Below are positions 1,607 to 25,155 of a stretch of DNA of 64,000 bases, one piece after another; the first letter of the stretch is position 1; every line of letters begins with the position of its first letter. A model generated the notes under the pieces. That model worked only from the letters and a program-made list of their open reading frames with translations. It ran no database searches and was not told the origin of the DNA. Source of the stretch: an uncultured Chlamydiae bacterium (GTDB lineage Bacteria; Chlamydiota; Chlamydiia; Chlamydiales; JAJFMB01); the NCBI GenBank assembly GCA_963697995.1, contig OY969110.1:63585-127584 (forward strand). The letters are read 5' to 3'. The translations under genes and the position numbers were made by a program.

Positions 1607-2582
1607 AATTTTAAGGTTTTGAAATAGTTTTTTCAAGTTTTTGGCTTAAGCCAAACTTGAAAAGGGGAGGGGGGGAGAGAGGGCTTTAAAAGCCCTCTCT
1701 CCCCCCTTAACCCCCCACCACTCACCCTAAATTCGGAAATGAGATAATGGCTCCAACCTTTGGTTGGAGGGGTTCTAAGGGGGAAAATGCTTTTCCCCCT
1801 TAGGATCCCCCTTTTGCTTCCACTCCTAAGTTGAAAGCAGGGGGGAAAAGCGATTTCCCCCCTACCCCCCCCTTTGCGTCAAAGGGGGGAAAGTTCACTT
1901 TCCCCCCTACCCCCCCCTTGATCCTTTGACTTATTTTTATAACTGTTTGGCGATCAATCTATTCGGAAAAGAGCAAAATGCATTTCTTCAAGTTTTGGCC
2001 TTAAGCCAAAACTTTGGAAATGCAAAGGGGGAGGAGAGGTTTCGCACCTCTCCTCCCCTTCCCACCTCACCGCGTTAGGGGCTTTCGCCCCTAAAACCCC
2101 TTATAATTGGGTTGCAAGGGCGAAGCCTTTGCTGCGGAGAGAGGGGTTAAGGGGAGAGAGGTGCAAAACCTCTCTCCCCTTTGCCTTAAGGTTTGGCGTC
2201 AGCCAAAAACCTTAAGGGATTAAACTTCATCCGATTAGATTGAACGCCAAATAGTTACAACAATGGGTAAAAGGATCAAGGGGGGGGTAGGGGGGAAAGG
2301 AACTTTCACCCCTTTGACGCAAAGGGGGGGGTAGGGGGGAAATCGCTTTTCCCCCCTGCTTTCAACTCAGGAGGGGAAGCAAAAGGGGGATCCTAAGGGG
2401 GAAAAGCATTTTCCCCCTTAGAACCCCTCCAACCAAAGGTTGGAGCTATTATCTCGTTTCCGAATTTAGGGTGAGTGGTGGGGGGTTAAGGGGGGAGAGA
2501 GGGCTTTTAAAGCCCTCTCTCCCCCCTCCCCTTTTCAAGTTTGGCTTAAGCCAAAAACTTGAAAAAACTATTTCAAAACCTT

Positions 2583-3090
2583 AAAAAAACAGCTTTTGCT
2601 AATTGTTTTAAGTTAAACTTTAAAAACAGCTTTAACCTAAACCTTATTACGTTAACCTTAAAAAAACAGCTTTTGCTAATTGTTTTAAGTTAACCTTAAA
2701 AAAACAGCTTTAACCTAAACCTTATTACGTTAACCTTAAAAAAACAGCTTTTGCTAATTGTTTTAAGTTAAACTTTAAAAACAACTTTAACCTAAACCTT
2801 ATTACGTTAAACTTAAAAAAACAGCTTTGACCCAAACCTTATTACGTTAACATTAAAAAAACAGCTTTAACCTAAACCTTATTACGTTAACCTTAAAAAA
2901 ACAGCTTTAACCTAAACCTTATTACGTTAACCTTAAAAAAACAGCTTTTGCTAATTGTTTTAAGTTAAACTTTAAAAACAGCTTTAACCTAAACCTTATT
3001 ACGTTAACCTAAACCTTATGACGTTAACCTAAACCTTATGACGTTAACCTAAACCTTATGACGTTAGCCTAAAACTTATGACTTAAACCT
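2583..3090 (+). repeat. Right tandem tail: eleven ~38-40 bp units (Y X Y X Y X X X X Y X), then about four 20-bp units
   Basis: Units read directly from the sequence; 20-mer ACGTTAACCTAAACCTTATG repeated over 3001-3080. Confidence 0.92.
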
Positions 3091-4820
3091 TAGCGACTAT
3101 CCAACAACTGATCGATCTCCTCAGAAGTGCCAAGCTCCAAAGCCTTCTCTGCTAAAAGATACGACTCCACGATACTTAACTCTCTGATCGTTTGCTTGAT
3201 AATCGGTAAAAAACGAAGTGAAACCGATAGCTCGTTTATCCCTAAACCCAAAAGAAGAGCTGTGTATTTAGGATCGGCCGCAATCTCTCCACAAACAGAT
3301 ACCGGTATCCCAACAGCACCAGCTTCCTCGGCAACCAGGCGAATCAAACGAAGAACGCTCGGGTGGGTTGGCGTGTAGTGTCTGCTCATCGAATGGTCCG
3401 TTCGATCTACTGCCAAGGAATACTGCACCAAATCGTTTGTTCCTATAGAAAGAAAATCACACTCCCTAGCCAAAAGATCGGAAATGATCGCAGCTGATGG
3501 AACCTCCACCATGCAACCCACCGGAATCGGTTCACCAAAAACTTGCCCCTCCCGAATCAGCTCATCTCGTGCCTCGTAAAGAAGAGCTTTGGCCTCCCGC
3601 AGTTCACTCAAAGTCGAAACCATCGGAAACATCACTTTCACTTTTCCAAACTGGGAAGCCCTTAAAATAGCTCGAAGCTGCACTTTAAACAGCCCCTTCT
3701 CCTTCAAACAAAAACGAATCGCTCGGCAACCCAAAAATGAAGCAGTCTCACCCATCCCCTTCTGCCCCACCATCAACTTATCACCACCAAGATCAAACGT
3801 CCTAATCACACAAGGCAATCCCCTCATCCCATCCACAAGCCTTTTATAAAAAGCAAACTGCTCCTCTTCTGTTGGAAATGAATCTTTTGCTAAGAATAAG
3901 TACTCCGACCGAAATAGCCCCACTCCACTGCCGTTGTGCTTATGAAGCGATTCAAGCTCATCCGGCACCTCGATATTGGCAGACAGGCGCACCTCATACC
4001 CATCAAACGTCTCTGCCTTAAAGGAAGCTAGTCCCTCTAATTTTAACTCTGTTTCATACGATTGTTGTACACGCGCCTTATAAACACTTAGCGTCTCTTC
4101 ACTTGGATTAATGATCAACTCACCCAAATGACCATCCACAATCACCAAATCCCCTTCAGAAATCAAATCTAAATTAAGAGGCAAATTCGAAAGATAGGGA
4201 ATCCCTTTAGCCCTTGCAACAATCGCAGCATGCGCCGCCTCACCACCAAACTCGGTCACAAATGCCTTAATTTCAGAAGGATTGGCCTCAGCTGCGTCAG
4301 AGGCACTAATTTCTTTGGCAAAAATCACTGAATCTTTTGGAAAAGATAAAAAATTAACCCTTGTTTGATGATTTAAATAGCTCAATATCCGACGGGAAAC
4401 ATCCTCTAAGTCTTTAAACCTCTCCCTAAAAAAAGGATCCTCCATGGCGTAAAACTTTTTTCTAAAATCATCGATCACTTGATCAAATATGTAAGCGGCA
4501 TTTCTCTGTCTTTTCTTGATCTCGTCTTCAACTACTGGAATGATCTCTGGATCCTCGAGAAGATGCAAATGCGCCTCTAAAACAGTCACGCCATCTAAGG
4601 CCTTCTCCTCTTTAAGGGTCTCTTTGAGCTTCTCAATCTCTTTTTTTGAATGGAGTAGCGCTTCCCTAAAACGGGTCACTTCTCCAAGCACCTCTCCCTG
4701 AGAAAGAATCTCTTCCTTAACCTCATGGGCCGTCAAGAAAAAAAAGGCGGCTCTGCCCATCACCAATCCTGGAGAAATTTTTGTACCCTTTATCCTAATT
4801 TCACGAGTCACTAGTTTCAT
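3090..4820 (-). CDS. ptsI: PTS enzyme I
   Basis: GGEAAHAAIVAR phospho-His motif; GVGLFRSE, RTFDLGGDK, SIGTNDLVQY. Confidence 0.97.
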   Translation of the reverse strand: MKLVTREIRIKGTKISPGLVMGRAAFFFLTAHEVKEEILSQGEVLGEVTRFREALLHSKKEIEKLKETLKEEKALDGVTVLEAHLHLLEDPEIIPVVEDEIKKRQRNAAYIFDQVIDDFRKKFYAMEDPFFRERFKDLEDVSRRILSYLNHQTRVNFLSFPKDSVIFAKEISASDAAEANPSEIKAFVTEFGGEAAHAAIVARAKGIPYLSNLPLNLDLISEGDLVIVDGHLGELIINPSEETLSVYKARVQQSYETELKLEGLASFKAETFDGYEVRLSANIEVPDELESLHKHNGSGVGLFRSEYLFLAKDSFPTEEEQFAFYKRLVDGMRGLPCVIRTFDLGGDKLMVGQKGMGETASFLGCRAIRFCLKEKGLFKVQLRAILRASQFGKVKVMFPMVSTLSELREAKALLYEARDELIREGQVFGEPIPVGCMVEVPSAAIISDLLARECDFLSIGTNDLVQYSLAVDRTDHSMSRHYTPTHPSVLRLIRLVAEEAGAVGIPVSVCGEIAADPKYTALLLGLGINELSVSLRFLPIIKQTIRELSIVESYLLAEKALELGTSEEIDQLLDSR

Positions 4821-5080
4821 TAAAATTGCCGCTCAAATGCCAGTATAAGTTTTTCCATCGTTTCAGTGGCGTCCTCACCCTCAATTGTCACGCTTATTTT
4901 TGCCCCTTTCTCTGCTGTCAAACTCAAAAGACCAATTAAACTTTTAGCATTCACCTCTTGACTGTTTAACGAAAAAAAGACCTGACTTTTAGAGTCCCTT
5001 AAAAGATTCACTATTTCAGCAGCAGGTCGCATGTGCAATCCCGAAGGATTTTTTACAACAAGTTTACGCGTATACTTCAC
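4820..5080 (-). CDS. ptsH: Phosphocarrier protein HPr
   Basis: GLHMRPA (His15) and NAKSLIGLL (Ser46) motifs. Confidence 0.96.
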   Translation of the reverse strand: MKYTRKLVVKNPSGLHMRPAAEIVNLLRDSKSQVFFSLNSQEVNAKSLIGLLSLTAEKGAKISVTIEGEDATETMEKLILAFERQF

Positions 5081-6026
5081 GATTTTTCCCTAAATTCTTT
5101 TGCTTGCTCTTTATCATCTCTAAAAGCTTTGAGTTAAAATCTTTCGCAGAATTGTAACCCATCACGCGAAGACGATGGTTTAAGGCAATCGTTTCCAGTA
5201 AAAGAACCACATCTCTTCCAGGCTTCACAGGCAATATATGATGAGGCAATTTTACCCCTAAAATCTGACAAGACTTCTCATCAATCCCCACCCGATCGTA
5301 ATATTTTTTTTCATCCCACGTCTCAAGCTTTACAACAAGATCAATACTTTTGTGATCCCGTACGCAAACAGCACCATAGAGATGAGCCACATTAATGATC
5401 CCAATCCCCCGAATCTCCATGTGATGCCGAGTCAACTCCGCACCAAACCCCTCCAAATGGCCACTCTCTCTTCTTTTGACCTTGACGACATCATCCGAAA
5501 TAAGGCGGTGGCCTCTTTCAATCAATCCGAGCGCTGCCTCACTTTTCCCAACAGAAGAATCCCCTTGAATCAAGACACCAACCCCAAAAACCTCCACAAG
5601 CGTTCCATGGCAACTCATACTGGGAGAAAACTCTTCGTTTAAAAGCAAAATCAATCGACTTAAAAAAGGGGTCGTCGACATCGTCGTCGATAAAAGAGGA
5701 ATATTAACCGCTTTACACACACTTTTAAGCTCTCTCATCACCTGGTAGCCTTGAGTCACGATCACTGCAGGTATTTTTTTCGAAAGGATTTTCTCAAGTC
5801 GCTCAATTCTAATCTCTTTACTCAAATCTCTTAAGTAAGCCATCTCCACTTGACCGAAGACCAGCATCCTTTTATCGCTATACCCCTTCAAATACCCCGT
5901 TAAACTTAAACCGGGTCTCTCAGCTTCAGGAGAAGGAATCTGCCGATTCAACCCATCTTGCCCTGAAACAAGCTCTAAGCTTAAACGTTTTTGGTGACGG
6001 CGGTAAAGGTCTGCAACAGTAATCAT
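5064..6026 (-). CDS. hprK: HPr kinase/phosphorylase
   Basis: GDSSVGKSE Walker A; LISDD; MEIRGIGII. Confidence 0.96.
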   Translation of the reverse strand: MITVADLYRRHQKRLSLELVSGQDGLNRQIPSPEAERPGLSLTGYLKGYSDKRMLVFGQVEMAYLRDLSKEIRIERLEKILSKKIPAVIVTQGYQVMRELKSVCKAVNIPLLSTTMSTTPFLSRLILLLNEEFSPSMSCHGTLVEVFGVGVLIQGDSSVGKSEAALGLIERGHRLISDDVVKVKRRESGHLEGFGAELTRHHMEIRGIGIINVAHLYGAVCVRDHKSIDLVVKLETWDEKKYYDRVGIDEKSCQILGVKLPHHILPVKPGRDVVLLLETIALNHRLRVMGYNSAKDFNSKLLEMIKSKQKNLGKNREVYA

Positions 6027-6030
6027 ATAC

Positions 6031-6849
6031 TCAATTAATTTGATCTAAATAAAAAGCCAACCACTCAAAAAATGTTTCAAAAGCTAAACTTTCTGCTCCC
6101 TTGGCTCCTTTTTTTAAGTCAGAGATTTCAAGAGTGTTGGCAGAAAAGTAGACGTTTCCTATCTCGTTTAAAGGACGCCATTCCGATAGAAAACACTGAA
6201 AAAAAGGCATTCCAAACGACTCGTAAAAAGGTATAAGTGATTTCGGCTCCACAGGCTTTCCCTTAAATTTTAAAGCGACATCCCTTTCGACAAGCATCTC
6301 CTGAAGCTCTAAGTAAAGCTCCTTCATCTGGTTTGTCGGAGTGATCCCCGTCGTGTCTGTCGCCTTTGAAAACCCGTTGTGTATTTGCAAAAAAGCTAAA
6401 TAATCTGATGGGAAATAAAAACCTGAAAATTCAATTTTAAGCCTCTCAAGCTGCTCTTCCGTTGCAGGAAGAGCTCCTCTAAAAAAACCACCCCCATTTT
6501 TTCGGCTATAAACCATCTCGGCAAGATAAGGATCTTGGGCTCTTTTATTCGAAAGATAAATACCTATATCGTCAAGGGAAGAAAAAAATTGAGAAACGGT
6601 GGCCTTTAAATCTTTGTGATAGGGAAGCTTTGAAAGCCAAAAATCTCTTAAAAACTCAAGCCTGTCTATTCGATTTAAATGGGAAAGTTCAAACCAACCT
6701 CTAGAAAAGTTAGGCACTTTTAAACACACATCTTTAAACGAAAGATCTGACCGATCGTGGAGAGCAATCACGTCTAAAAAATTTCCCGATGGGGTTGGAT
6801 CAGAAAATTGAGAATAATATTCACTTACATGCTCGTCCAAAAATCTCAC
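6031..6849 (-). CDS. Chlamydial conserved protein with SMI1/KNR4-like domain
   Basis: FPSDYLAFLQIHNG and TFFEWL motifs; position between ptsH and comEC as in Chlamydia. Confidence 0.7.
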   Translation of the reverse strand: MRFLDEHVSEYYSQFSDPTPSGNFLDVIALHDRSDLSFKDVCLKVPNFSRGWFELSHLNRIDRLEFLRDFWLSKLPYHKDLKATVSQFFSSLDDIGIYLSNKRAQDPYLAEMVYSRKNGGGFFRGALPATEEQLERLKIEFSGFYFPSDYLAFLQIHNGFSKATDTTGITPTNQMKELYLELQEMLVERDVALKFKGKPVEPKSLIPFYESFGMPFFQCFLSEWRPLNEIGNVYFSANTLEISDLKKGAKGAESLAFETFFEWLAFYLDQIN

Positions 6850-6969
6850 CGCTGTAAAATCGAGTTTTCCACTCTTTTATACCAATTTCCATATTTTTTT
6901 TGTGACAAAAAAGGGTAAATCAGCTATTTTTTTGCTTTTTTTTAACCTTACAAACCGAAAAAAAATAAT

Positions 6970-8448
6970 TTGCTCTTTTTAAACAAGACTCCAGCACTTC
7001 TCATTGCAACTTTTGCTCTACTTGGATTTTTTATCCCCCTATACCCTTTTTTAAGCTTCCCCACCCTTTTTCTTATCACCCTTTACCCCCACTTTCCTAA
7101 AAGAGGGCAACAAGCCTTTTTTTTAGCCGTACCCCTCTCTCTTTTAGCGGGCCTCTTTAGTTTTTTATCCCTTCCAAAAATTGCTACCGATGAGCTAAAA
7201 GGCACTTTCCATTTTGCAATCGATGAGATCAGAGAATCAAAAACAGCCTTTGGAAAAGGGGTTCTCTACAAAGGACACATCGTCGCTATAGAGAGCCCTC
7301 AATTAAAAATAAACTTTTGTAGACTCCCCTGTTCTCTTTACCTCAGTAAAAAAAAAGAGATTTACCCAGATAAAGTGATTATCGAGGGCACTCTTGCGAT
7401 GAAAACACCCTATTTTGCGCGCCTAAAACCTCATCTAAAAACACCCTGGATCCCCAATTCCTCCACCTTTTTTGCAGAAGGACGCTTTCTTTTAAAGAAA
7501 AAACTTGCGCGCTTTATCGAAAGTAAATTCTCTTTTCCCGATACAAAAAAATTAATCACTGGGCTTGTAACGGGAAACTTTGATGATTTTTTAGTGAGCC
7601 AGGAGTTTTCAAGGCTTGGACTTTCCCATTTAATGGCGATCTCTGGTTTCCACTTTAGCCTTGTCGCCAATGTCTTAAGCCTTTTTTGCATTAACTTTTT
7701 TAAAAGAAAAACAGCGACACTTTTGCTTTATTTTTTTTTAAGTTCCTACTTTCTATTCCTTGGAGCTCAAGCTTCTGTCTTAAGAGCCTGGACGATGATT
7801 TTGATCGCTTTAGGAGAACATTTCGTAGAAAAAAAATCAGAACCGTTAAATTCCCTAGGGATCTCATGTCTCCTTATTCTTCTCATCAATCCGACAGAGA
7901 TTTTAAGACCAGCTTTTTGGTTAAGCTACGGGATCACAGCCTCTATTTTACTTTTTTCCTCTCCTTGCCAAGCCCTTTTAGATTTCGTTTTTAAAAAAAG
8001 AAGTCACGAGGAAGTGTTAGCCTTAACCCCTCTCAATCAGTGGGGCTATTTCGCCTTATCTTTTTTAAAAAAAGGGATTGCTTTAAACTTAGCCGTCACA
8101 ATTTTTGCCCTACCTCTCACCCTCTTTTTTTTTCACCGCTTTCCCTGGATAAGCCTTTTTACAAACCTGTTGTTTCCACCCTTAGTAGGTATCAGCCTGC
8201 TTCTTTTTCTTCTTTCAATCCTGCTTTTTCCTCTCTCTAAAACAATCGATTTTATAAACGATTATTTCACCCATGCCCTTTTGAGCCTTATGACGAACAT
8301 TCCCCTAAAAGTAGACTTTGTCTTAAGAGTCTCCTCAATGGAGGTGATTATTTTAGCCTACATCCTTATCCCGCTGCTTCTTATCGGACTTTACCTCAAA
8401 AATAGAGTTGATAAATTTTTCTTGTACCAAAATCAAATCTCCTTTTAA
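6970..8448 (+). CDS. comEC: ComEC/Rec2 competence membrane protein (no C-terminal MBL domain)
   Basis: GLSHLMAISGFH, SVLRA and FWLSY motifs; many TM segments. Confidence 0.9.
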   Translation: MLFLNKTPALLIATFALLGFFIPLYPFLSFPTLFLITLYPHFPKRGQQAFFLAVPLSLLAGLFSFLSLPKIATDELKGTFHFAIDEIRESKTAFGKGVLYKGHIVAIESPQLKINFCRLPCSLYLSKKKEIYPDKVIIEGTLAMKTPYFARLKPHLKTPWIPNSSTFFAEGRFLLKKKLARFIESKFSFPDTKKLITGLVTGNFDDFLVSQEFSRLGLSHLMAISGFHFSLVANVLSLFCINFFKRKTATLLLYFFLSSYFLFLGAQASVLRAWTMILIALGEHFVEKKSEPLNSLGISCLLILLINPTEILRPAFWLSYGITASILLFSSPCQALLDFVFKKRSHEEVLALTPLNQWGYFALSFLKKGIALNLAVTIFALPLTLFFFHRFPWISLFTNLLFPPLVGISLLLFLLSILLFPLSKTIDFINDYFTHALLSLMTNIPLKVDFVLRVSSMEVIILAYILIPLLLIGLYLKNRVDKFFLYQNQISF

Positions 8449-8490
8449 GATGCAAAAGAAAACAGCTTAACCTTACAAAGGATTTTTAGT

Positions 8491-8931
8491 ATGAAACAAC
8501 AAAACATTGTAAAATCAGAAACTGGACGTCCAAACCTCCGTCCCCACTCTTTTTTTTCACCCTTTTTTGAAAATGACTTTATTCCTTCACTTTTTAGCGC
8601 CCAAGAACACACAGGTCTTTCCGTTTCAGAAGACGACAATAATATCTACGTAGAGGCGGCCCTACCGGGACTTAAACAAGATGATGTTCAAATCACCTTT
8701 GAAAATGGGACCCTTTGGATAAAAGGAGAAAGACAAGAGGAGCAAAAAGATAAAAAACGCTCATTTTACAAAAAATGTCAAAGTTCTTTTTCATATCATT
8801 TGAATGTTCCTGGCCACATCGACGAAAAAAAAGATCCTTCTGCTTCTTTTAAAGATGGTGTTGTACAAATCACATTTGCCAAAGCCAAAGAGAAGAAAGC
8901 TAAAGAAATTAAAATCACAAAGAAGGCTTAA
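8491..8931 (+). CDS. Hsp20/alpha-crystallin small heat-shock protein
   Basis: VEAALPGL...FENGTLWIKGE...ASFKDGVVQITF. Confidence 0.92.
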   Translation: MKQQNIVKSETGRPNLRPHSFFSPFFENDFIPSLFSAQEHTGLSVSEDDNNIYVEAALPGLKQDDVQITFENGTLWIKGERQEEQKDKKRSFYKKCQSSFSYHLNVPGHIDEKKDPSASFKDGVVQITFAKAKEKKAKEIKITKKA

Positions 8932-8933
8932 CA

Positions 8934-9136
8934 TAGTCGGCCCTTAAAAAGTAAGGGTTCCTTGAGAAAAATTTGCAAATGGAACATGCACTCTCCAAAG
9001 AAAAAGTGATACTTTTGCAACAAAAAAAGCGGTGAAGGACGCTTCCCCCCCCTTGAGGGGTTTGGTGAGGAGTAAAGCGCATTTTTTGTCAAAAGGGGCA
9101 CTTTTTATTGGAGAGGACTTTTTTAAGGGCCGACTA
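8934..9136. mobile_element. MITE-like element, family A, copy 1 (203 bp)
   Basis: ~19 bp TIR TAGTCGGCCCTTAAAAAGT; TAACATA direct repeat at both ends; homologous to 42536-42815. Confidence 0.85.
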
Positions 9137-9140
9137 ACAT

Positions 9141-9175
9141 AATGCTCCCTCTGCTTGGGTAGAGGGAGCATTTTT
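9141..9175 (+). terminator. Rho-independent terminator of hsp20
   Basis: AATGCTCCCTCT...AGAGGGAGCATT stem followed by a T-tract. Confidence 0.75.
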
Positions 9176-9223
9176 CAAGTTGACTAAAAAAGGTAAATCG
9201 CTTAATAATGATTCTCATCTTGC

Positions 9224-9298
9224 GGCGATTGTAGCTCAGCTGGTTAGAGCGCCGGATTGTGGTTCCGGAAGTCGCGGGTTCGAACCCCGTCGATCGCC
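9224..9298 (+). tRNA. tRNA-His(GUG), with G-1; CCA not encoded
   Basis: Cloverleaf: D arm TAGCTCAGCTGGTTAGAGC; CCGGA-TTGTGGT-TCCGG anticodon arm; GGTTCGAACCC T arm; upstream TTGACT...TAATAAT promoter-like. Confidence 0.95.
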
Positions 9299-9307
9299 CT
9301 TTTTACA

Positions 9308-9700
9308 CTATTGATTACTTGGTATCGGTTGTTCATGTGGTGTTGCTACCACAATTTCCCAACCCTTTTTCCCCTTTAAAAGATTATAAGTGTAATTCCA
9401 ATTCCACACGACAGCCCCACTTTCAGTCACAAGACACCACTCAACAGTTAACAAAGCCATCATCTCATCTAAAAAAATCACCTGATTGACTGCGCACTTT
9501 GAGTGAGCAACCCCTTTTTCAGTAAATAACTTAAAGACTTGATTAAACTCCTTTTCAATTTCATCGCGGTTGTGAAAATTAAAAATTCTGTGTTCGCTAA
9601 CGATCAAACTTGGTGTAGCAAAAAGAGAGGCCATTCCTTTTGCATCTTTTTTATCAAAAACTTTCGATATTCGCTTAATAAATTCTTGAATTTCGTGCAT
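9308..9700 (-). CDS. NTF2-like fold small protein
   Basis: Helix-then-beta-sheet pattern ending in GWEIV; RBS GGAGG. Confidence 0.6.
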   Translation of the reverse strand: MHEIQEFIKRISKVFDKKDAKGMASLFATPSLIVSEHRIFNFHNRDEIEKEFNQVFKLFTEKGVAHSKCAVNQVIFLDEMMALLTVEWCLVTESGAVVWNWNYTYNLLKGKKGWEIVVATPHEQPIPSNQ

Positions 9701-9810
9701 ATTTCCCTCCTAAAGGAATAAATTCGTGTTATACATTTTTATTTATTTGAATGAAACCAAAACCTTATGAGACCATAAGATTTAGAGAAAAAATGTAAGG
9801 GCTAAATTCC

Positions 9811-12147: not shown

Positions 12148-12213
12148 ATCTCTTGAAATAAACAGCCAAACCATGCTAAAACAGCTGTATCAAAACGATA
12201 AAAGGCATCTATC

Positions 12214-16614: not shown

Positions 16615-16963
16615 GTACGTTGTTACCTTTTCTTAAATTTCACTTTAAAGGCTGCCACTTCAACTAAAAAAAGCAACCTATCCTTTAAGCTCACCACTAT
16701 ACACAAATGGGAAAATAGAAGCAATACCCAATTTCACCTACCCCCTAGAGTCGACCTGAAAGAGTGCTAAAGCTGCCCAAATTAGAAGACAAGTTAACAA
16801 AATTTTACGACAATCAGGAGAGAAAATTTGTAGAATTGAAACAAATAAAATATTAAATCTCAGTTATTAGTAAAATTATTATTAAATGTTAATAAAATTT
16901 ACAGTTTAAGCAAATTAAAATTCATATTATCATTGACTTTAACTTATTTATTTTGTATATTTT

Positions 16964-17734
16964 GTGATTAAAAAGGAGTTTTTACACATGAGTAGTAGTA
17001 ATATTAGTTTTGACAGTCAAGTAGGTATTCCTGAGGGATTTGGAATAAGCAGAGATAATTTACATAGAAGACAACCACCAGTACCTTTTGTCGACAGAAT
17101 AGCAGAAGTGATGACAAAAACAGTTCCTAGATTAGGGGTTACTGTTGAAATTGAAAATACCCGTTACAAAATTAAAGAATTTGGTAAACAAGGAAGATTT
17201 AAGAGCTTTAAAATTAAACACGATATCGTATTCGAATCAAAAGATTTAATTTATAAAAATCGATCTCATTCCTGTCGTAAATGGATTCTAAAAATCTTCA
17301 ATCCTTTAATGGGAAATGCACTTTTCAGAGACTTTGAAAACACAAGAAAAACAATACAATACCTTAAAGATAATCAAATAAATCATCCCGAATGTCTTAT
17401 TACACCTGAGACTTACAAACATCCTACTAATGGTAAATTTTGGGTAGTTAGAAAAATTTCAAAGGAGATCGACATATCAAAACCTCAAGTTGTTGCATTT
17501 ATTAAAAATCTTTATAATTTAAATGTAATAAACCCCGATAAAAAGCTTAAGATTTTTAAAGAGAATATTCGATTAGACAAACATGACGTTCCTTATTTTA
17601 CTGGTATGTCGATGTATTCTGGATTATCTCTTAAAGAATCGATCGAAGAGGAGTTGTTCAAACTTATTCAAGACGGTGAGGCAAGTGAAAACTCAAGTCA
17701 TGTTGATACAGAAGATAGTATTTCAAACAATTAA
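16964..17734 (+). CDS. AT-rich hypothetical protein, possibly a degenerate protein-kinase fold (likely start 16988)
   Basis: WILKIF and FKENIRLD resemble kinase subdomains II and VIb, but the catalytic Asp residues are not evident. Confidence 0.55.
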   Translation: MIKKEFLHMSSSNISFDSQVGIPEGFGISRDNLHRRQPPVPFVDRIAEVMTKTVPRLGVTVEIENTRYKIKEFGKQGRFKSFKIKHDIVFESKDLIYKNRSHSCRKWILKIFNPLMGNALFRDFENTRKTIQYLKDNQINHPECLITPETYKHPTNGKFWVVRKISKEIDISKPQVVAFIKNLYNLNVINPDKKLKIFKENIRLDKHDVPYFTGMSMYSGLSLKESIEEELFKLIQDGEASENSSHVDTEDSISNN

Positions 17735-17853
17735 TATTCCACTTTTTCAGAATGAACTACTAGTAACTAGAGTCGACCAAAGAAGGGGATTTGAACCAAG
17801 AAAATTCAGTCCCATTCACTCGAGTAAAAACACCAACTAATTAATTGACTTGT

Positions 17854-17889
17854 AAGACGACAAAACAGGATAGACTGTTTTGTCGTCTT
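17854..17889. terminator. Hairpin between convergent genes (likely bidirectional terminator)
   Basis: Perfect 15-bp stem AAGACGACAAAACAG / CTGTTTTGTCGTCTT. Confidence 0.7.
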
Positions 17890-17894
17890 CGGTT

Positions 17895-18491
17895 TTAATA
17901 ATGAATCTTAATAGATGTTTCCCCTTTTAACAAAAGGGAGCGCCCCTCAAGATAAAGCCCTTTTGGGGAAATGGGCTCTTCAAAAATAGGCAAACCTGGC
18001 AACTTATCTTTAATTAAGTTTTTATGAGGTGTAACAATCACTTCCCCCTCTTTTAAAGAGAACTCCTTTGGTTTTAAAAGACTCGGTTTTCCCTCAAAAA
18101 TCACTTGATCCCCCTCTCTTACTCCCCTCTCCATATAAAGCCCCCCCGATCTTGCATCGATCACCGATACAAAAGGACCTGAATTGCTTCTTACAAAACC
18201 TCTTAATGAACTGACACCTACTAATGGAATCCCACATGCAAATGAAAAGGCTTGAGCAATCGTGACGCCAACACGCAATCCTGTATAAGAGCCTGGGCCT
18301 ACCCCCACAATCAAAAGGGAGAAAGAGCTAATTTCAAGGTTAAAACGAGCCAATAAGTCTGATAAAACCGGCATAAGATGGGTCGAGCTTTGTAGTCCCT
18401 CCGGCAAAGTGACCACTTCAATTGGCGTATCTCCTTGAAAAAGAGCTACTACCCCTTTTTCTGTTGCTGTATCAATAATCAGTGTTTTCAT
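17895..18491 (-). CDS. tsaB: t6A biosynthesis protein TsaB
   Basis: MKTLIIDTA start; GVGPGSYTGLRVG; VIDAR. Confidence 0.93.
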   Translation of the reverse strand: MKTLIIDTATEKGVVALFQGDTPIEVVTLPEGLQSSTHLMPVLSDLLARFNLEISSFSLLIVGVGPGSYTGLRVGVTIAQAFSFACGIPLVGVSSLRGFVRSNSGPFVSVIDARSGGLYMERGVREGDQVIFEGKPSLLKPKEFSLKEGEVIVTPHKNLIKDKLPGLPIFEEPISPKGLYLEGRSLLLKGETSIKIHY

Positions 18492-18540
18492 AATTTTACA
18501 AGAACAGTATAGAGTAAAATAGATCAAAAGTCGAGAACTT

Positions 18541-20983
18541 ATGGAAAAAGAGTCGGAAGAAGAGTTTGAAATTGAGGAGACCCTATTCAAGTCACTAGGG
18601 CAAGAGAGAGGTCTTACCTCTCACGAGTTCACCCCCCCGGAGGAGCTTTCGATTATTCCTGTCGTGAAACGCCCATTTTTTCCAGGAATGGCGGCGCCAA
18701 TTGTGATCGAACCTGGGCCCTACTATGAACTTTTAAAAAAAATAGCTAAATCTGATCACAAATGCCTTGGGTTTACTCCTTACAAAAAAGGAGGAGTTTA
18801 ATCCTAATACTGTTTCATTTAAAGATCTCTATAAAGTTGGAACACTTGCGCGTATTTTGAAAGTCGTTCCCTTAGAACAAGGGGGAGCTCAAGTCATTTT
18901 TAATATGGAGAAAAGGTTTAAAGTGATCGAACCTCTCCATCAAAAAAGACCGCTAAAAGCTCTCGTCAAGTACCACGAAGATTCAGAGGTGATCACAAAA
19001 GAATTGAAAGCTTACGCGCTAAGTATTTTATCGACGATAAAAGAGCTTTTAAAGCTAAATCCCCTCTTTAAAGAAGAGCTCCAAATTTTCCTTGGGCATT
19101 CAGACTTTACAGAACCTGGAAAACTTGCCGATTTTGCAGCCGCCCTGACAACTTCTTCAAGAGATGAACAACAAAATATTCTTTCAACATTCAACATTTC
19201 CAACCGAATCGAAAAAGCTCTTCTTCTCTTAAAAAAAGAGCTTGATTTAGTTGCCCTTCAAACAAATATCACTCAAAAAATTGAATCGACGATCTCTAAA
19301 AACCAAAAAGATTTTTTCCTAAAAGAGCAGCTCAAAACGATAAAACGGGAACTTGGAATCGAAAAGGATGATAAATCCTTAGATAAAGACAAGTTTGAGG
19401 CAAGACTACAAGATCGAAAACCCACTGATCAGGTCCTCGAAGTGATCAATGAGGAGATCGAAAAACTTTCAGTCTTAGATATTCAATCCTCAGAGTACGC
19501 AGTTTCCAGGGGGTACCTCGACTGGTTGACGATCATCCCTTGGGGAGTTAAAAGTGAGGAGTGTCACGACTTAAAACTTGCTAAAAAGGTTCTCGACACC
19601 GACCACTTTGGCCTTAAAGACATTAAGGAGAGGATCTTAGAGTTTATTAGCGTCGGAAAACTCACCCACGGCGTGAAGGGAAGCATTATTTGTCTTGTAG
19701 GCCCCCCTGGAGTTGGAAAAACGAGTATTGGAAGAAGTATTGCAAGAGCTTTAAACCGCAAGTTTAACCGGTTTTCCGTTGGAGGAATGCGAGATGAGGC
19801 TGAAATTAAAGGGCACAGACGCACCTATATTGGCGCGATGCCGGGAAAACTGGTTCAAGCTCTAAAACTTACACAAACGATGAACCCCGTGATCATGCTA
19901 GACGAAGTCGATAAAATGGGTTCGAGTTTTCAGGGAGACCCAGCGTCTGCCCTTTTAGAAGTTTTAGATCCTGAACAAAACAAAGACTTTCTCGATCACT
20001 ACCTCGATGTGCCCTGCGATCTGTCTGATGTGCTCTTTATTGTCACAGCAAACGTTTTAGACACTATCCCAGAGCCCCTACTCGACCGAATGGAGATTCT
20101 TCGCCTTTCAGGATATATCTTAGAGGAGAAAATTGAAATTGCAGAAAAATACTTAATTCCGAGAAACAGAAAAGCGATGGGACTTAAAGGGCAACACGTC
20201 TCTTTTACAAAACAGGCTCTTATTGCCTTAATCAACGGCTATGCAAGGGAAGCTGGGGTTCGTAACTTAGAGAATCTTATCAAAAAGATTTTCAGAAAAG
20301 TGGCTATGGAGATTGTCGAAGGGACACATAAAACAAAAGAAAAAAGTCACAAAATTACCCTCAAAAATTTAGAACACTATTTGGGTAAACCTATTTTCAC
20401 CTCAGACAGATTTTACGAAGAGACTCCTGTGGGTGTCGCCACAGGACTTGCATGGACAGCACTTGGGGGAGCTATTCTCTTTATAGAAACAGTCAAAGTG
20501 CCCGCTGAAAAAACGGTGATGGTTTTAACTGGACAAGCAGGGGATGTGATGAAAGAGTCTTCCCAAATTGCCTGGAGCTACCTGCACAGCACCATCCATA
20601 AATATGCTCCTGAGTACACCTTTTTTGAAAAATCGCAAGTTCACATCCATATTCCTGAAGGGGCGACTCCAAAAGATGGTCCCTCAGCTGGGGTGACGAT
20701 GTGCACAGCTCTTCTCTCACTTGCCATGAACACGCCTATAAAACAAGATCTTGCGATGACAGGCGAGATCACTTTAACCGGACGGATTCTTCCTGTGGGA
20801 GGAATTAAAGAAAAAGTCGTTGCGGCAAGAAGAGCTAAAATTCAAACACTTATTCTTCCAAAAGACAATAAAAGAGATTTCGATGAACTTCCAACTCACA
20901 TAAAAGAGGGACTTGTGATACACTATGTGAGTACTTACGATGAGGTGTTTCCCATTGCCTTTAAAGATAGAAACCCAACCTGA
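18541..20983 (+). CDS. lon: Lon protease, split by an apparent 1-bp frameshift near 18770
   Basis: N-domain start (RPFFPGM) in 18541-18801 continues as GLLLTKK in the 18767 frame; GPPGVGKTS; PKDGPSAG. Confidence 0.93.
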
Positions 20984-21473
20984 GACTTTAGAACTCTTCG
21001 TTGAAACAAAATTTATTTCAAGAGAAGAGCTCTCCTCTTTTGCTGAGGCGATTCGCGCAAAAGGATTAACGATTGCGACTCTAAACGGCTCATTTGACTT
21101 AATGCACGCAGGGCACCTTCAGATCATCTTTGAAGCTAAACAACAAGCCGATGTTTTGATAGTCGCTTTAAATTCTGATGAATCGATCAAAGCGTACAAA
21201 TCAAAAGATCGCCCCATTGTTCCGTTACATTATCGACTAAAAATGATGGCAGCACTTCAATTTGTCGATTATGTGACCTCATTTGAAGAGACTGATCCTA
21301 TCCGTTTACTTCAAGAGATTAAGCCAAATGTTCACGTCAATGGCTCTGAATATGGGATCAACTGCATCGAATCGGAGGCTGTCAAGCAAATGGGAGGAGT
21401 TATCCACATTGTGGATCTCGTTGCCTCTCTTTCGACCTCTCAACTGATCAAAAAAATTAAGGAATTACCATGA
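20940..21473 (+). CDS. RfaE/HldE domain-II-like nucleotidyltransferase
   Basis: NGSFDLMHAGH; ALNSDES; LSTSQLI. Confidence 0.85.
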   Translation: MRCFPLPLKIETQPETLELFVETKFISREELSSFAEAIRAKGLTIATLNGSFDLMHAGHLQIIFEAKQQADVLIVALNSDESIKAYKSKDRPIVPLHYRLKMMAALQFVDYVTSFEETDPIRLLQEIKPNVHVNGSEYGINCIESEAVKQMGGVIHIVDLVASLSTSQLIKKIKELP

Positions 21474-22213
21474 GAGAACCTCCTCTTGGCCCTCTCACTA
21501 AGTTTATCGTAGGTTTTTGCACCCTTCTTTTTGCCATCTCAGCCATTACTACTCCAACAGATGAAACAGGGCCTGCCCTGTCTACAATAAAAAAAGAGAT
21601 GCTCTACGACTACCCAAAAGCGTATGAACTCAATCAGAATATCCCCTACTGGGAAGGGTTTTACAATCAAATCGTTTCCCATTTTAAAGAGGGCACTGCC
21701 TTCAAAATTCAAGCTCCCGTCTTTGAAAAAATTAAACAAGGTGAGGTCTGGCGCCTTTTCACTCCTATTTTTTTACACGGAGATATTTTTCATCTTCTTT
21801 TCAATATGGCTTGGGCCATTGTGATTGGAAGGCAGCTTGAAAGTCGCTTAGGTCTTTTTAAAACATCCCTTTTTATTTTGATCACAGCTTTAGTCTCAAA
21901 TACGGCCCAATACCTGATGAGTGGTCCAAACTTTATTGGTTATTCGGGAGTTCTTTGCGGAATGTTTGCCTTTATCTGGGTAAGGCAAAAAAAAGCTCCT
22001 TGGGAGGAGTACGATTTGGATTCCTCAACCGCCCTTTTTATACTCGTTTTTGTTTCAGGACTCTTTCTTTTTGAAACGTTTGCTACGTTACTAAATATTT
22101 ACGGAAATATTTATATATCACCAAATATTGCGAACACGGCCCATATCACCGGAGGATTAACGGGAGCTTTTCTTGCAGCTCTTCCCTATTTTTCTAGAAA
22201 AGATACCGCTTGA
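21470..22213 (+). CDS. Rhomboid intramembrane serine protease
   Basis: WRLFTPIFLH; HLLFNM; GYSG (catalytic Ser); AHITGG (catalytic His). Confidence 0.92.
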   Translation: MREPPLGPLTKFIVGFCTLLFAISAITTPTDETGPALSTIKKEMLYDYPKAYELNQNIPYWEGFYNQIVSHFKEGTAFKIQAPVFEKIKQGEVWRLFTPIFLHGDIFHLLFNMAWAIVIGRQLESRLGLFKTSLFILITALVSNTAQYLMSGPNFIGYSGVLCGMFAFIWVRQKKAPWEEYDLDSSTALFILVFVSGLFLFETFATLLNIYGNIYISPNIANTAHITGGLTGAFLAALPYFSRKDTA

Positions 22214-22231
22214 TTCACTATAATCTCTCGT

Positions 22232-23146
22232 ATGAGCGTTCGCGATTTAAAAGTTTTAGGCACCTCCTCTCAGCAACCAACTCGGGAAAGAAACCATGGA
22301 GCTTACCTTATTCGGTGGAATGGGGAGGGTTTCCTCTTTGACCCGGGGGAAGGCACTCAAAGACAATTTATTTTTGCAGATGTAGCCCCTCCTACAGTGA
22401 CTAGAATTTTCGTCTCCCACTTTCATGGGGATCACTGCTTAGGACTCGGCTCAATGCTCATGCGTCTTAACTTAGACAAAGTGAATCATCCCATTCATTG
22501 CTACTACCCTGCTAGCGGTAAAAAATATTTTGACAGATTGCGGTATGGAACGATTTACCACGAAATGATTGAAGTGATAGAGCATCCGGTTGATAAGGGT
22601 GGGCTTGTGCACGATGATGGGCATTTTAAGATTGAAGCTGGCTTTTTAGTCCATGGCGTCGACAATTTAGGTTGGCGAATCACTGAAAGCGACACGCGTA
22701 AATTCGACAAAAAAAAATTAAAAACATGTGGAGTCGAGGGTCCAAACGTGAGACTGCTTCAAGAGAGAGGAGAGCTTCTCATCGATGGAAACCTAGTGGT
22801 TTTAGATGATGTGAGTGTGATCAGAAAGGGAGATATTTTAGCCTATGTGGTCGATACAAGACCTTGTGAAACGGCCGTCAATTTAGCAAAAGGTGCCAAA
22901 CTTTTCATTTGCGAAAGCACCTATACGGATGAGCATCAAAAACTTGCCCACAAGCATTTTCATTTAACAGCAAGACAGGCTGCAGAGATGGCAAAAGAGG
23001 CGGGGGCTTCTCAGTTGATTTTAACCCACTTTTCAGCTCGTTACGCGAGTGTGAGAGAGATTGAAAAAGAAGCTAAAGAGATTTTTCCAAATACAATCGT
23101 TGCAGAAGATTTAATGACGTATTCCTGGCCAAAAAATGAGCAGTAG
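22232..23146 (+). CDS. rnz: Ribonuclease Z
   Basis: DPGEGTQRQ; SHFHGDH; THFSARY. Confidence 0.94.
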
Positions 23147-23157
23147 TATATATCTTT

Positions 23158-24171
23158 ATGCAAGGAGAATCTTCCATGTTTATAGAGACTGCATACCGTT
23201 TTTTAGAGCATTTAAAAGTTGTCAAAGCTGCATCTGAACACACCGTCAGAAATTACGCTATCGATCTTAATGCTTTAAAGCTATTTATCGAATCGACTGC
23301 TTTTAGCGATAAAAAACCGGAAGATTTACCAGAAAAAATCAGACACGACGCGAAATACAACGAGCGGTGGAAAGGTAACGACAATTTAATTGTGTTGTCT
23401 GAAGTTGATCGAAACACTATTCGAAAATTTATTGCCTCGCTAAACGACACAAACGCCCACAAGAGAACCATTGTGAGGCGCTTATCGTCCCTTAAGACCT
23501 TTTTTAAATTTGCGCTTTCCCTGCAACTGATTCGTGAAAACCCGATCGAGGATATAGAGTCGCCAAAACTAGAGAAGAAAATTCCTCTTTCAGTTTCATT
23601 CGATCAGATCAAGATTCTTTTCAACCAACCCGATACGGACACTTACCTTGGATTTCGGGACCGAGTGATTATGGAGCTTTTTTACAGCTCAGGATTACGG
23701 GTGAGCGAGCTTGCCGATTTGAATCGGGAAGATGTCGACTTAAAAAATTGCACACTTAAAGTTAGGGGTAAAGGAAAAAAGGAGAGGGTTGTTCCTATAA
23801 CAGAGCATGCGGCAAAATGGATACGTGAGTATTTGGAGCACCCTGAAAGACACCTTGATGGAAGCGGACATTTTTCTCAAGTGGACGAAAGGGCTATTTT
23901 CTTAAACAAACTTGGAACGAGGATCACAACTCGTTCAATCGACAGAAACTTTGATAAGTACTTAAAGGGTTCAGGCCTTGCAGCAGATATCACACCCCAC
24001 ACGATTAGACACACGATAGCGACCCATTGGCTAGAAAACGGGATGGACTTAAAAACGATACAAACGATTTTGGGTCACAGCTCTCTTGCAACAACGACGA
24101 TCTACACCCAGGTCTCACCAAAGGTAAAACAAGAGACGTACAACAAAGCGCACCCTCACCAGCTCTCTTGA
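23158..24171 (+). CDS. xerC: Tyrosine recombinase XerC (housekeeping; start may be 23176)
   Basis: GLRVSEL; GKGKKER; HTIRH; LGH; TTIY; rnz-xerC-ABC-F synteny of Chlamydiae. Confidence 0.92.
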   Translation: MQGESSMFIETAYRFLEHLKVVKAASEHTVRNYAIDLNALKLFIESTAFSDKKPEDLPEKIRHDAKYNERWKGNDNLIVLSEVDRNTIRKFIASLNDTNAHKRTIVRRLSSLKTFFKFALSLQLIRENPIEDIESPKLEKKIPLSVSFDQIKILFNQPDTDTYLGFRDRVIMELFYSSGLRVSELADLNREDVDLKNCTLKVRGKGKKERVVPITEHAAKWIREYLEHPERHLDGSGHFSQVDERAIFLNKLGTRITTRSIDRNFDKYLKGSGLAADITPHTIRHTIATHWLENGMDLKTIQTILGHSSLATTTIYTQVSPKVKQETYNKAHPHQLS

Positions 24172-24227
24172 GGGGATAAACCTTTTAGTTGATGAATTCT
24201 CTCTTCTTTAAGATTTGCCCTCTTTCA

Positions 24228-24336
24228 CAAAACTTGCCCCTGCCCTCTTCTCCTTCCCCTTCCCCAAACTTGCCCTTGCCCATGCCCGTGCCCTCTTCTC
24301 CTTCCCCTAAACTTTCCCATGCCGTTGCCCGTGCCC
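24228..24336 (+). repeat. Pyrimidine-rich short repeats (TGCCCN hexamers and CCCTCTTCTCCTTCCCC modules)
   Basis: AAACTT-(TGCCCN)n-TCTTCTCCTTCCCC repeated 2-3 times; a short inverted copy lies at 25144-25169. Confidence 0.8.
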
Positions 24337-25155
24337 TGTAAGCGTCAAACGAGACCCTGTATTAAAAACCGCGAAGCGGTTGCCGGAGGGGGTAAAGGGG
24401 GAACCGCGCAGGGGTTCCCCCGCTTAGATGGAATCATTACAATTGATCAAGATGATTCGAGATTATAGTTTGTTCTTCGATGTTTATTACTTAAAGCATC
24501 TTTAAAAGGGGGAACCACGCAGGGGTTCCCCCGCTTAGATGGAATCATTACAATTGATCAAGATGATTCGAGATTATAGTTTGTTCTTCGATGTTTACAA
24601 CTTAAAGCATCTTTAAAGGGGAAACCGCGCAGGGATTTCCCCACTTAGATGAAATCATTACAATTGATCAAGATGATTCGAGATTATAGTTTGTTCTTCG
24701 ATGTTTACAACTTAAAGCATCTTTAAAGGGGGAACCGCGCAGGGGTTCCCCCGCTTAGATGGAATCATTACAATTGATCAAGATGATTCGAGATTATAGT
24801 TTGTTCTTCGATGTTTATTACTTAAAGCATCTTTAAAGGGGGAACCGCGCAGGGGTTCCCCCGCTTAGATGGAATCATTACAATTAATCAAGATGATTCG
24901 AGATTATAGTTTGTTCTTCGATGTTTACAACTTAAAGCATCTTTAAAGGGGGAAACCGCGCAGGGGTTTCCCCACTTAGATGAAATCATTACAATTGATC
25001 AAGATGATTCGAGATTATAGTTTGTTCTTCGATGTTTACAACTTAAAGCATCTTTAAAGGGGGAACCCCTGCGCGGTTCCCCCTTTACCCCCTCCGGCAA
25101 CCGCTTCGCGGTTTTAAATACATGACCTCGTTTGACGCTTACAGGGCATGGGCAA
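24325..25155. repeat. Element with 97-bp terminal inverted repeats enclosing six ~110-bp tandem units
   Basis: TIRs 24325-24421 and 25059-25155 (~5 mismatches, no indels); hairpin GGGGGAACCGCGCAGGGGTTCCCCC at 24397, 24508, 24618, 24728, 24838, 24948 and inverted at 25059. Confidence 0.95.

Follow-up and report, generated by a model that had tools for sequence, protein, structure and literature searches.

Introduction

Correia-type bacterial MITEs are non-coding, dispersed, intergenic elements that are flanked by inverted repeats and may amplify in tandem. To our knowledge, repeats have been little studied in the chlamydial phylum. In the BoxC/PIT/TM-ECO elements, a 3-4 nt loop separates a purine tract from a purine stem/loop/pyrimidine stem. 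They are described as always intergenic and multi-copy with no transposase nearby, TM-ECO being a free-standing 37-nt proteobacterial repeat (PMC4666352; Holder et al. 2015). The main text of that paper makes no mention of Chlamydiae. REP, BIME and REPIN sequences are described as short imperfect palindromes that are extragenic and near gene 3' ends, with a genome-specific consensus, and that form inverted doublets and mosaics with other motifs (PMC3733652, PMC6006769).

Here, two large non-coding blocks, E1 and E2, are considered in a 64,000-nt stretch of DNA (the window) from a chlamydial genome of 2.05 Mb on one contig (G000). A preliminary description treated them as two loci of a possible undescribed family of structured DNA elements. 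Both are instead ordinary members of dispersed, genome-specific, non-coding repeat families (F1 and F2) that are probably BIME/REPIN-like mosaics of a REP-like module. Because they are copies of two genome-scattered families, E1 and E2 are best read as a variant of a known bacterial repeat kind rather than as unique functional loci. Repeats of the REP/BoxC/PIT/BIME kind have already been described in other phyla (PMC4666352). The building block would join a G/C-clamped hairpin through 2-5 nt of linker to a C-tract, which reads as a G-tract on the opposite strand; a second hairpin usually follows.

Anatomy of the two blocks

As described previously, both blocks lie between convergent genes. E1 (window 1349-3092) is flanked by a ybaB-like gene (+, 1049-1348) and ptsI (-, 3090-4820), and E2 (24172-25175) by genes for a XerC/D-type recombinase at 23158-24171 (+) and for an ABC transporter at 25176-26918 (-). 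The proposed layout of tail, arm, core, arm and tail holds for E1, which contains the following features:

1379-1602, no strand: left tail, tandem 40-bp and 77-bp units of the TTAAGGTTT type with an A-tract every ~20 bp
1603-2587, + strand: body, the 0.98-kb quasi-palindrome common to the 14 F1 copies of the genome
1609-1916, no strand: left arm, 308 nt, 88% complementary to the right arm
1634-1659, no strand: terminal A/T-rich hairpin H1, with a mirror copy at 2536-2561
1777-1919, - strand: three triplex-type motifs of the left arm (1777-1815, 1839-1875, 1883-1919)
2028-2071, - strand: triplex-type motif of the core, stem 12
2073-2183, no strand: central doublet of modules 2073-2136 (+) and 2101-2183 (-) with a common GAA-tipped hairpin (2113-2133)
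2278-2419, + strand: three triplex-type motifs of the right arm (2278-2313, 2321-2357, 2381-2419)
2280-2587, no strand: right arm, partner of the left arm
2588-3092, no strand: expanded right tail, extending into the ptsI stop codon

The core between the arms is 363 nt, and the triplex-type motifs of the left arm, read on the + strand, have the order hairpin, linker, C-tract. The F1 consensus folds as a single arm-to-arm hairpin in which 13 pairs are still paired despite changes on both sides. The two tails share a 40-bp period but are inverted relative to each other and differ in length (~220 bp left versus ~505 bp right). In a genome-wide listing of tandem arrays, this type of tail occurs only beside F1 copies. 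Diverged copies of H1 make up tails at other loci, one example being a 173-bp x 3.1 array with H1 at genome position 1960319.

E2 follows the same layout only loosely, its "core" being a tandem array of a 110-bp unit:

24233-24337, no strand: left tail, 2.3 copies of a 43-bp C-rich repeat with NTGCCC hexamers
24325-24421, + strand: left arm, with a GAA-tipped hairpin AACCGCGAAGCGGTT, G5, TAAA and a hairpin GGGGGAACC..GGTTCCCCC
24393-25083, no strand: internal array, 6.3 tandem copies of a 110-bp unit (hairpin plus 82-nt segment)
25014-25041, - strand: promoter-like site TTGTAA-16-TATAAT, a consensus match only
25059-25155, + strand: right arm, in + strand order a hairpin, TTTA, C5 and a second hairpin, with a match below significance to covariance model R1 (see below) at 25055-25107
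25143-25174, no strand: right tail remnant, ~32 bp, an inverted copy of one left-tail unit

The E2 arms are 97 nt in length and 95% complementary. The promoter-like site is found in four of six units (also 24903-24930, 24683-24710 and 24573-24600). The left-tail array is predicted to be G-quadruplex-prone on the opposite strand, and arrays of its type are also present elsewhere without F2.

Two dispersed families

F1 is represented by 14 copies in the genome (13 full and one truncated, E1 being one) along with fragments. The copies are 92-98% alike with a median pairwise identity of 95.6%; this is young for elements without their enzyme and speaks against reading them as orphans. F2, to which E2 belongs, is an inverted-repeat element at about 15 loci, with four further tail or fragment loci. 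Its minimal form is ~280 bp, and its 110-bp unit, the boundary of which is the hairpin, is amplified about 1-6 times per locus. All copies of both families are intergenic.

The ends of F1 fray into variable tails that hold reiterated terminal-hairpin units. Since the F2 tails are inverted at about six loci and direct at about four, no single insertion model accounts for F2. From a comparison of flanks across loci, neither a sharp end nor a target-site duplication (TSD) could be defined for either family. Direct repeats of 12-19 bp do flank the element at three to four F2 loci; these sit within hexamer arrays, where such repeats are expected. The genome holds 192 tandem arrays (73 kb in total), many of which are long-period and intergenic.

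Of 40 relatives searched, none contained F2, and F1 was limited to a 76-nt match in genome G002 (79% identity, E 5.8e-9), a homolog of the - strand module in the E1 central doublet, and a 35-nt match in genome G038. Plasmids gave no match to either family, nor did public contigs scanned with exact patterns.

A convergent context is observed at 9/14 F1 loci and 7/15 F2 loci compared to 17% of intergenic regions. An unrelated MITE, present in 106 full copies though its transposase is missing from the genome, has an equal bias (37 of 88 host intergenic regions, 42%). The convergent position is thus generic, and not the family trait that it was taken for.

Motifs and predicted folding

F1 and F2 share no sequence homology; the best common stretch is the 14-mer GGGGGT[T/A]AAGGGGG with one mismatch. 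What remains of the proposed common architecture is the design of the module, which recurs in other chlamydiae. The pattern G4-6 N2-5 G5 N5-20 C5 was searched on both strands of the genome with 18 Markov simulations serving as controls. There were 28 (+) and 34 (-) matches, against 0-2 per strand in the simulations, and every one of the 62 fell in a copy of F1 (45) or F2 (17). The motif noted in both blocks is therefore enriched beyond them, and modules recognized by this pattern occur in this genome only within F1 and F2.

Triplex-type motifs were scanned with a re-implementation of the published ITxF rules, using loops up to 6 and 8. According to these rules, stem A mirrors a purine stem B (G:G, A:A/T:A) and stem C complements B; loops are short and stems are at least 6 nt, one mismatch being permitted from 7-8. 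F1 held 125 of the 137 genomic motifs, with eight per copy, stems of 8-12 and mirroring on both strands, while Markov controls gave 1-5 per strand. Under the same rules, no motif was found at any F2 locus: the G5 tract of F2 mirrors just 6 nt of its stem, which then goes on with non-purines. The analogy drawn to BoxC/PIT triplexes holds, by sequence rules, for F1 but not for F2. In place of a triplex, simple hairpins are a realistic fold, as the C8 tract can base-pair with the G6 run that follows it.

The heptamer GCGAAGC, also put forward as a common trait, does cap a hairpin in both blocks; its frequency is at chance level, with 71 occurrences on the + strand (48 outside F1 and F2), where 7-mers of equal composition average 65. 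Single-strand folding is strong relative to shuffles (z of -45.7 for E1 and -17.4 for E2), as expected of any palindrome. A terminator scan identified none in E2 and no more in E1 than in shuffles.

A two-hairpin module in other chlamydiae

By eye, a module consisting of a hairpin, a 3-5 nt linker, a C-tract and a second hairpin is multi-copy in other chlamydial genomes. Counts of the G-tract pattern in G054, G173, G196, G107 and G018 were 35-67, 15 and 10 versus 0 in a reversed control. Twenty-six modules in three families (G018, G107 and G196) could be aligned, with compensatory variation in hairpin 2, and were used to build covariance model R1. Matches to R1 were found in 28/151 genomes, 14 of which carry at least eight copies. 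Where a gene 3' end was nearby, 17/19 modules were hairpin-first in the sense of that gene, mostly 0-35 nt past the stop codon; a reading of ORF lists by eye placed 8/10 further modules likewise.

With filters off, R1 produced 12 matches in the window at E<=1, ten in E1 and one in E2, of which the best (15.7 bits, E 0.077) is below significance, and a search of G000 returned none at E<=0.01. As a result, the membership of F1 and F2 in this group is argued from their architecture and from the one 76-nt homolog in G002. The F2 modules point outward and, relative to flanking genes, are opposite both to F1 and to the modules of other genomes in polarity.

Function, mobilization and alternatives

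If E1 and E2 are mosaics of a REP-like module, we would lean toward the module being primarily a hairpin element of transcript 3' ends that serves in termination or mRNA stabilization, as REPs do. It would be tolerated downstream of genes and oriented there by selection. With similar likelihood, modules were joined in this genome into palindromic mosaics, which a trans-acting enzyme that has since been lost then spread to further intergenic sites; a parallel may be seen in the roughly 130-copy IS5-type MITE, whose transposase was likewise lost. The leading candidate for this enzyme, though a doubtful one, is a structure-specific Y1/HUH protein acting on folded single strands. Hairpin-promoted replication slippage or unequal exchange quite likely gave rise to the F1 tails and the F2 internal array at a later stage; this process appears to be visible in many intergenic arrays of G000.

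In a stronger form of the Y1 proposal, a RAYT/IS200-type Y1 HUH enzyme would recognize the folded single strand of the elements as its substrate, with F2 as a large REPIN, F1 as a nested one, and selection acting on ssDNA structure. The modules are REP-like, the elements have the inverted-doublet form of REPINs, and no clear terminal inverted repeat or TSD is seen at their ends. Y1_Tnp was present in all five motif-rich genomes examined, and Y1 in 11/14 genomes with at least eight R1 matches versus 102/200 in the order (p about 0.03, kinship ignored). One Y1 protein is at the NCBIfam RayT cut-off (80.1 versus 80 bits) and another, RayT-like with a DnaA-C domain, scored 66 bits; tnpA-REP genes are also described as patchy in distribution and frequently lost (PMC6006769). 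However, the preliminary description expected an HUH/RAYT gene elsewhere in the genome, and profile searches of the single contig returned no match for Y1_Tnp (PF01797)/HUH, nor for DDE_Tnp_1, IS110, rve or TnpB. Three genomes with 8-18 R1 matches are likewise without Y1. Of the ten Y1 loci in the five motif-rich genomes, only one, an IS200-type gene, lay within about 1.5 kb of a module, and the RayT-like loci had none within the flanks covered. A GTAG or CGTC foot was not consistently present in modules read by eye, CGTC preceding the hairpin in G173 and missing from the modules of G018, G107 and G196. In addition, modules hold gene-sense polarity on both sides of convergent pairs, unlike a replication-strand bias. 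Taken together, this proposal is considered unlikely.

Somewhat less likely again, and on a par with one another, are two explanations that place the elements among DDE transposons or host sites. As non-autonomous MITE/foldback transposons, their arms and sub-terminal arrays would be transposase-binding sites and the G/C hairpins incidental. The long F1 arms with sub-terminal repeat arrays, the MITE-sized minimal F2, the direct repeats around a few F2 loci and the presence of another DDE-type MITE without its transposase agree with this. The ends, though, fray instead of stopping sharply, with no TSD of fixed length; no autonomous element with F1 or F2 ends was found in the genome, the 40 relatives, plasmids or public contigs; and the lone module past stop codons in other genomes is left unexplained. 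As sites kept for a host function, the blocks would be bidirectional terminators or insulators, or nucleoid or replication landmarks of non-B DNA (cruciform, triplex, G-quadruplex or curved A-tracts). Their convergent context, extreme structure potential and the sense polarity of modules past stops elsewhere fit such a role. Yet the unrelated MITE is equally convergent, copy number, tails and arrays differ freely among loci, mismatches accumulate in the local hairpins among F1 copies, the elements are not found in sister genera, and the orientation of F1 is patternless along the chromosome. Least probable is that the post-stop module is an RNA 3'-end element whose C-tract folds back onto the G:C stem and forms a pyrimidine-motif triple helix, making it the bacterial equivalent of triple-helix RNA stability elements, or is the recognition unit of a non-Y1 structure-specific mobilizing enzyme. 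Under either version, F1 would amount to a kilobase-long "foldback" mosaic of these units, a prokaryotic element class without description in the literature searched.

With dispersed mosaics of a REP-like module as the favored reading, the question is no longer one of two odd loci but of a module spread across a lineage. A REP/BoxC-like module with strict gene-3'-end orientation is common in environmental chlamydiae, and in one genome it has probably been built into palindromes of kilobase size, parts of which are prone to form triplexes, cruciforms and quadruplexes. These may serve as a natural test bed for transcript 3'-end formation, for a role in genome instability like the one proposed for TM-ECO, and for REP-like persistence without a RAYT. 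Annotation should mask the blocks as repeats and make no RNA gene calls in them.

Comparison with known systems

F1 and F2 resemble MITEs in being non-coding, dispersed and intergenic, with inverted repeats at their flanks and orphaned from an enzyme; they differ in having no parent IS, fixed TSD or sharp ends, and F1 is 3-4 times the typical MITE size. An IS200/IS605-derived PATE was considered and rejected, given that the arms are symmetric, whereas a PATE has different sub-terminal hairpins, and that the genome is without Y1. Foldback/Galileo-type elements share with F1 very long inverted arms, outer variable tandem sub-repeats and a short middle (PMC3688188). They are eukaryotic with a known DDE or P-type transposase, and the likeness is one of form only.

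The chlamydial modules share the REP/BIME/REPIN traits given in the Introduction. Unlike REP/RAYT systems, G000 is without a RAYT, with no REPtron arrangement seen and no consistent foot in the modules read by eye. F1 agrees with BoxC/PIT/TM-ECO in motif design, intergenic location, multiple copies and the lack of a nearby transposase, while F2 fails the ITxF rules. In contrast to the free-standing TM-ECO (PMC4666352), F1 embeds eight such motifs in each 0.98-kb palindrome, and the mosaics, unlike REP and BIME, can be as long as a kilobase, with tandem tails.

Anatomy of the two elements

The genome around the window is a single contig of 2.05 Mb with 40.6% G+C. E1 (window 1349–3092) takes up all of the space separating a ybaB-like gene from ptsI. 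E2 (window 24172–25175) lies in the space between genes for an XerC/D-type recombinase and an ABC transporter, which it fills; the genes converge in both pairs. E1 is a quasi-palindrome in which two 308-nt arms (1609–1916 and 2280–2587, 88% complementarity) enclose an asymmetric core of 363 nt. The tails outside the arms are tandem 40-bp-period repeats, inverted relative to each other, the right being longer than the left. The last unit of the right tail continues into the ptsI stop codon (window 3080–3092); thus, the array abuts the end of the reading frame and perhaps supplies it.

The arms of E2 are 97 nt long with 95% complementarity, and between them a 110-bp unit is repeated 6.3 times in tandem. 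E2 is flanked on the left by a C-rich 43-bp repeat and on the right by an inverted remnant of ~32 bp. Four of the six units in the array contain a promoter-like site, TTGTAA-16-TATAAT, identified by consensus match only. The preliminary description assigned one layout to both elements; this layout holds for E1, but E2 follows it only loosely. A blastn-short comparison of E1 and E2 detected no homology beyond G5/C5 words. When the whole window was searched with Rfam at gathering thresholds, there was no match in E1 or E2, and only one tRNA and the following RNA were identified:

29323–29683, minus strand: RNase P RNA of class A (225.9 bits), a standard housekeeping RNA

Dispersal of F1 and F2

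Each element belongs to a dispersed repeat family. From a BLAST search against its own genome, the 0.98 kb body of E1 (window 1603–2587) is present at 14 sites, 13 full-length and one 5'-truncated, in addition to fragments. The pairwise identity of the 13 bodies in this family, F1, has a median of 95.6% (range 91.9–97.8%). The tails of each locus have their own unit and length, though all are made of TTAAGGTTT-type motifs and a reiterated terminal hairpin segment. Of 13 copies, just three have left and right tails that are mutual best partners, and one more has them as second-best partners, so there is no general rule of tail pairing.

In the second family, F2, ~15 loci carry the arms of E2 together with 1 to ~6 of its units, and four additional loci hold only a tail or a fragment. 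The F2 tail repeat also occurs without F2 (for example, genome 704665–704953); around F2 it is inverted at ~6 loci and direct at ~4. Outside the window, genome 1306319–1307893 holds two F2 copies within a single G-rich tandem array of 120-bp period. On both sides of each copy lies the same array unit in direct orientation, so F2 and its flank seem to have been tandemly duplicated as one unit. Four other F2 loci outside the window (genome 852017, 923781, 2048014 and 197612) contain nested insertions among repeat families. At three of them, one unrelated repeat replaces the outer part of an arm at an identical point, between TTAA and AACCGCG, and at the fourth, the abundant MITE breaks the other arm.

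A search of 40 relatives for the two families gave nothing but matches of 76 nt in the related genome G002 and 35 nt in G038, and a blastn search of plasmids gave no match. Exact-pattern scans returned no occurrence of the F1 hairpin in genome_contigs, nor of the F2 arm or an F1 23-mer in metagenome_contigs. An F2 20-mer had seven matches in genome_contigs, all in unrelated G+C-rich taxa; these were taken for chance, with ~1 expected for a random 20-mer. Among sequencing runs, no RNA data set was listed as containing the elements. In a soil-metagenome study, a fraction of 0.11 of the sampled words was present, on contigs that are 151-nt pieces at a depth of 2–3 and include neither a joint nor an empty site.

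Several other identities were considered for the two elements and set aside. Copies in 14 different contexts speak against an assembly artefact, and the 14 chromosomal copies together with the wrong strand polarity against a telomere or protelomerase site. A CRISPR-like array is disfavoured by 'spacers' that are identical. An xer gene adjoins only one of the ~15 F2 loci, which argues against an Xer/dif-linked element.

Shared traits of the families

The two elements had been linked by their convergent setting, a G-tract followed by a linker and a G5..C5 hairpin, and the word GCGAAGC. The hairpin motif has 62 matches in the genome, compared to 0–2 per strand in simulations, and all 62 are in F1 or F2, as are 194 of the 212 G5-N5–20-C5 hairpins. 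GCGAAGC occurs at chance frequency in the genome. Convergent sites are enriched in both families (F1, 9 of 14 loci, binomial p ~1e-4; F2, 7 of 15, p ~1e-2) when compared to 264 of 1536 intergenic regions (17%), a baseline derived from crude ORF-based gene calls. This enrichment is not specific, however, as a convergent setting was also seen for 37 of the 88 intergenic regions that carry a MITE (42%). Since an unrelated MITE is likewise biased, a convergent site is to be expected of any insertion that a compact genome tolerates.

Intrastrand triplex motifs were scored with our own re-implementation of the published ITxF rules (PMC4666352). F1 holds 125 of the 137 motifs in the genome, with eight per copy: the left half carries four on its minus strand, the right half four on its plus strand. 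The genome scan identified none in F2.

Joint change in the F1 arms

Eleven F1 bodies yield a consensus fold of one arm-to-arm hairpin with 424 pairs, of which 13 stay paired despite changes on both sides. Columns 40/961, 42/959 and 46/955, for example, show variant 1 on both arms of four copies and variant 2 on both arms of another four, the remaining three copies being hybrids; thus, the F1 arms tend to change together. The local hairpins gain mismatches that are mirrored between the two arms. This pattern in the aligned copies points to arm-to-arm copying or conversion as the probable process, and not to selection on each small hairpin.

The module in other chlamydiae

The motif pattern of the preliminary description matched 57 of 201 genomes of the order, several with tens of matches, while a reversed-pattern control was near zero. 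A tighter pattern gave 67 matches in G173, 46 in G196, 35 in G054, 15 in G107 and 10 in G018, with none for the reversed control in all five. The consensus is particular to each genome; many matches fall at the ends of contigs, and inverted pairs with a spacing of 0.2–1.2 kb are common. In G018, G107 and G196, the module is a REP-like unit of ~65 nt composed of G5-loop-C5, a linker of 3–5 nt, C5 and a second hairpin of the AAGGGC..GCCCTT type, in which compensatory differences are seen between copies. This order of parts was identified by eye in the genome of the window (G000):

2183–2103, minus strand: F1 core, the stretch with a homolog in G002
2073–2136, plus strand: F1 core
Each F2 arm

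A covariance model, R1, was built solely from the modules of G018, G107 and G196. In the window, 11 of its 12 matches at E<=1 were in E1 (10) or E2 (1), all weak (best 15.7 bits, E 0.077). Across the order at E<=0.01, with no more than 34 candidates scored in any genome, there were matches in at least 28 of 151 genomes, at least 14 of these with 8 or more copies; G000 was not among the matches listed. Thus, the likeness of F1 and F2 to the module family is architectural and not statistically proven.

Module orientation relative to genes

Polarity was evaluated for 28 distinct modules at 30 loci in five genomes, a module being scored if a gene 3' end within 150 nt reads toward it. Such a gene end was present for 19 of 28, and 17 of these 19 are hairpin-first in the sense of that gene. 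For G018, G107 and G196 combined, the count is 14 of 14, with 13 positioned 0–34 nt past the stop. At five further loci, where ORF lists were read by eye, 8 of 10 modules are hairpin-first in the gene sense and two lie at gene 5' ends. Convergent gene pairs have one module per gene. Such polarity is more readily explained by a constraint linked to transcription than by one linked to the replication strand. The F1 palindrome shows gene-sense polarity to both neighbours. The F2 modules point the opposite way; they would meet transcripts from the promoter-like site inside the units, if that consensus match is active.

Candidate mobilizing enzymes

An HUH/RAYT-type nuclease had been proposed to act on the elements. 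In G000 there is no match to Y1_Tnp, DDE_Tnp_1, IS110, rve or the TnpB zinc-ribbon domain, and there are four tyrosine recombinases. Y1_Tnp is present in 102 of 200 genomes of the order, including all five motif-rich genomes. Among the 14 genomes with at least 8 R1 matches, 11 have it, a weak enrichment (p ~0.03, with kinship ignored). Eight Y1 proteins were scanned: five are above the NCBIfam IS200 cut-off, and a sixth matches IS200 below it (40 vs 55 bits). Of the remaining two, the first attains the RayT cut-off, and the second is a RayT-like protein with a DnaA-C domain. The latter is a 315-aa protein in G054 (C19, locus L080, coordinates 1468–2412), a RayT-like Y1 domain fused to the DnaA C-terminal DNA-binding domain. 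PMC6006769 mentions such a fusion in certain TnpA-Y1 subclasses without a link to REPs. Modules flank only 1 of 10 Y1 loci, an IS200-type one, so the defining REPtron arrangement, a Y1 gene between cognate repeats, is not seen. The proposed RAYT link is unsupported here.

Other repeats in the genome

Repeated DNA comprises ~7% of the genome. A MITE of ~280 bp has 106 full copies and ~130 self-BLAST partners; the genome has no PF01609 transposase able to move it. Copies in the window are at 8928–9147 and 42525–42841, one just upstream of a tRNA gene (9225–9298). A palindromic repeat of ~180 bp at window 52292–52471 (also ~44801–44981 and ~47595–47783), with terminal inverted repeats of ~20 bp (TACAGTTGAACAAAAGTTTTT...) and 5–6 genome copies, looks like another small MITE family. 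Long-period intergenic tandem arrays are unusually numerous, with 192 arrays totalling 73 kb, head-to-tail MITE arrays included, which suggests a general tendency of the genome toward tandem duplication. Examples (genome coordinates) are:

48210–49185: 58 bp x 16.8
1259504–1260613: 117 bp x 9.5
1279363–1280515: 114 bp x 10
1919970–1920978: 137 bp x 7.4

Comparison with known repeats

Literature searches and passages of PMC4666352, PMC12306157, PMC3733652 and PMC6006769, the supplementary tables of which may list chlamydial genomes, gave no account of this module in chlamydiae, nor of mosaics of this kind at kilobase scale. The features first noted are real and in part exceed chance. The suggestion of an undescribed family of structured elements is retained in part: a shared structured module exists and extends well beyond this genome, but E1 and E2 themselves are members of repeat families of a known general kind, one that the F1 and F2 blocks share with the REP/BIME/REPIN and BoxC/PIT repeats.
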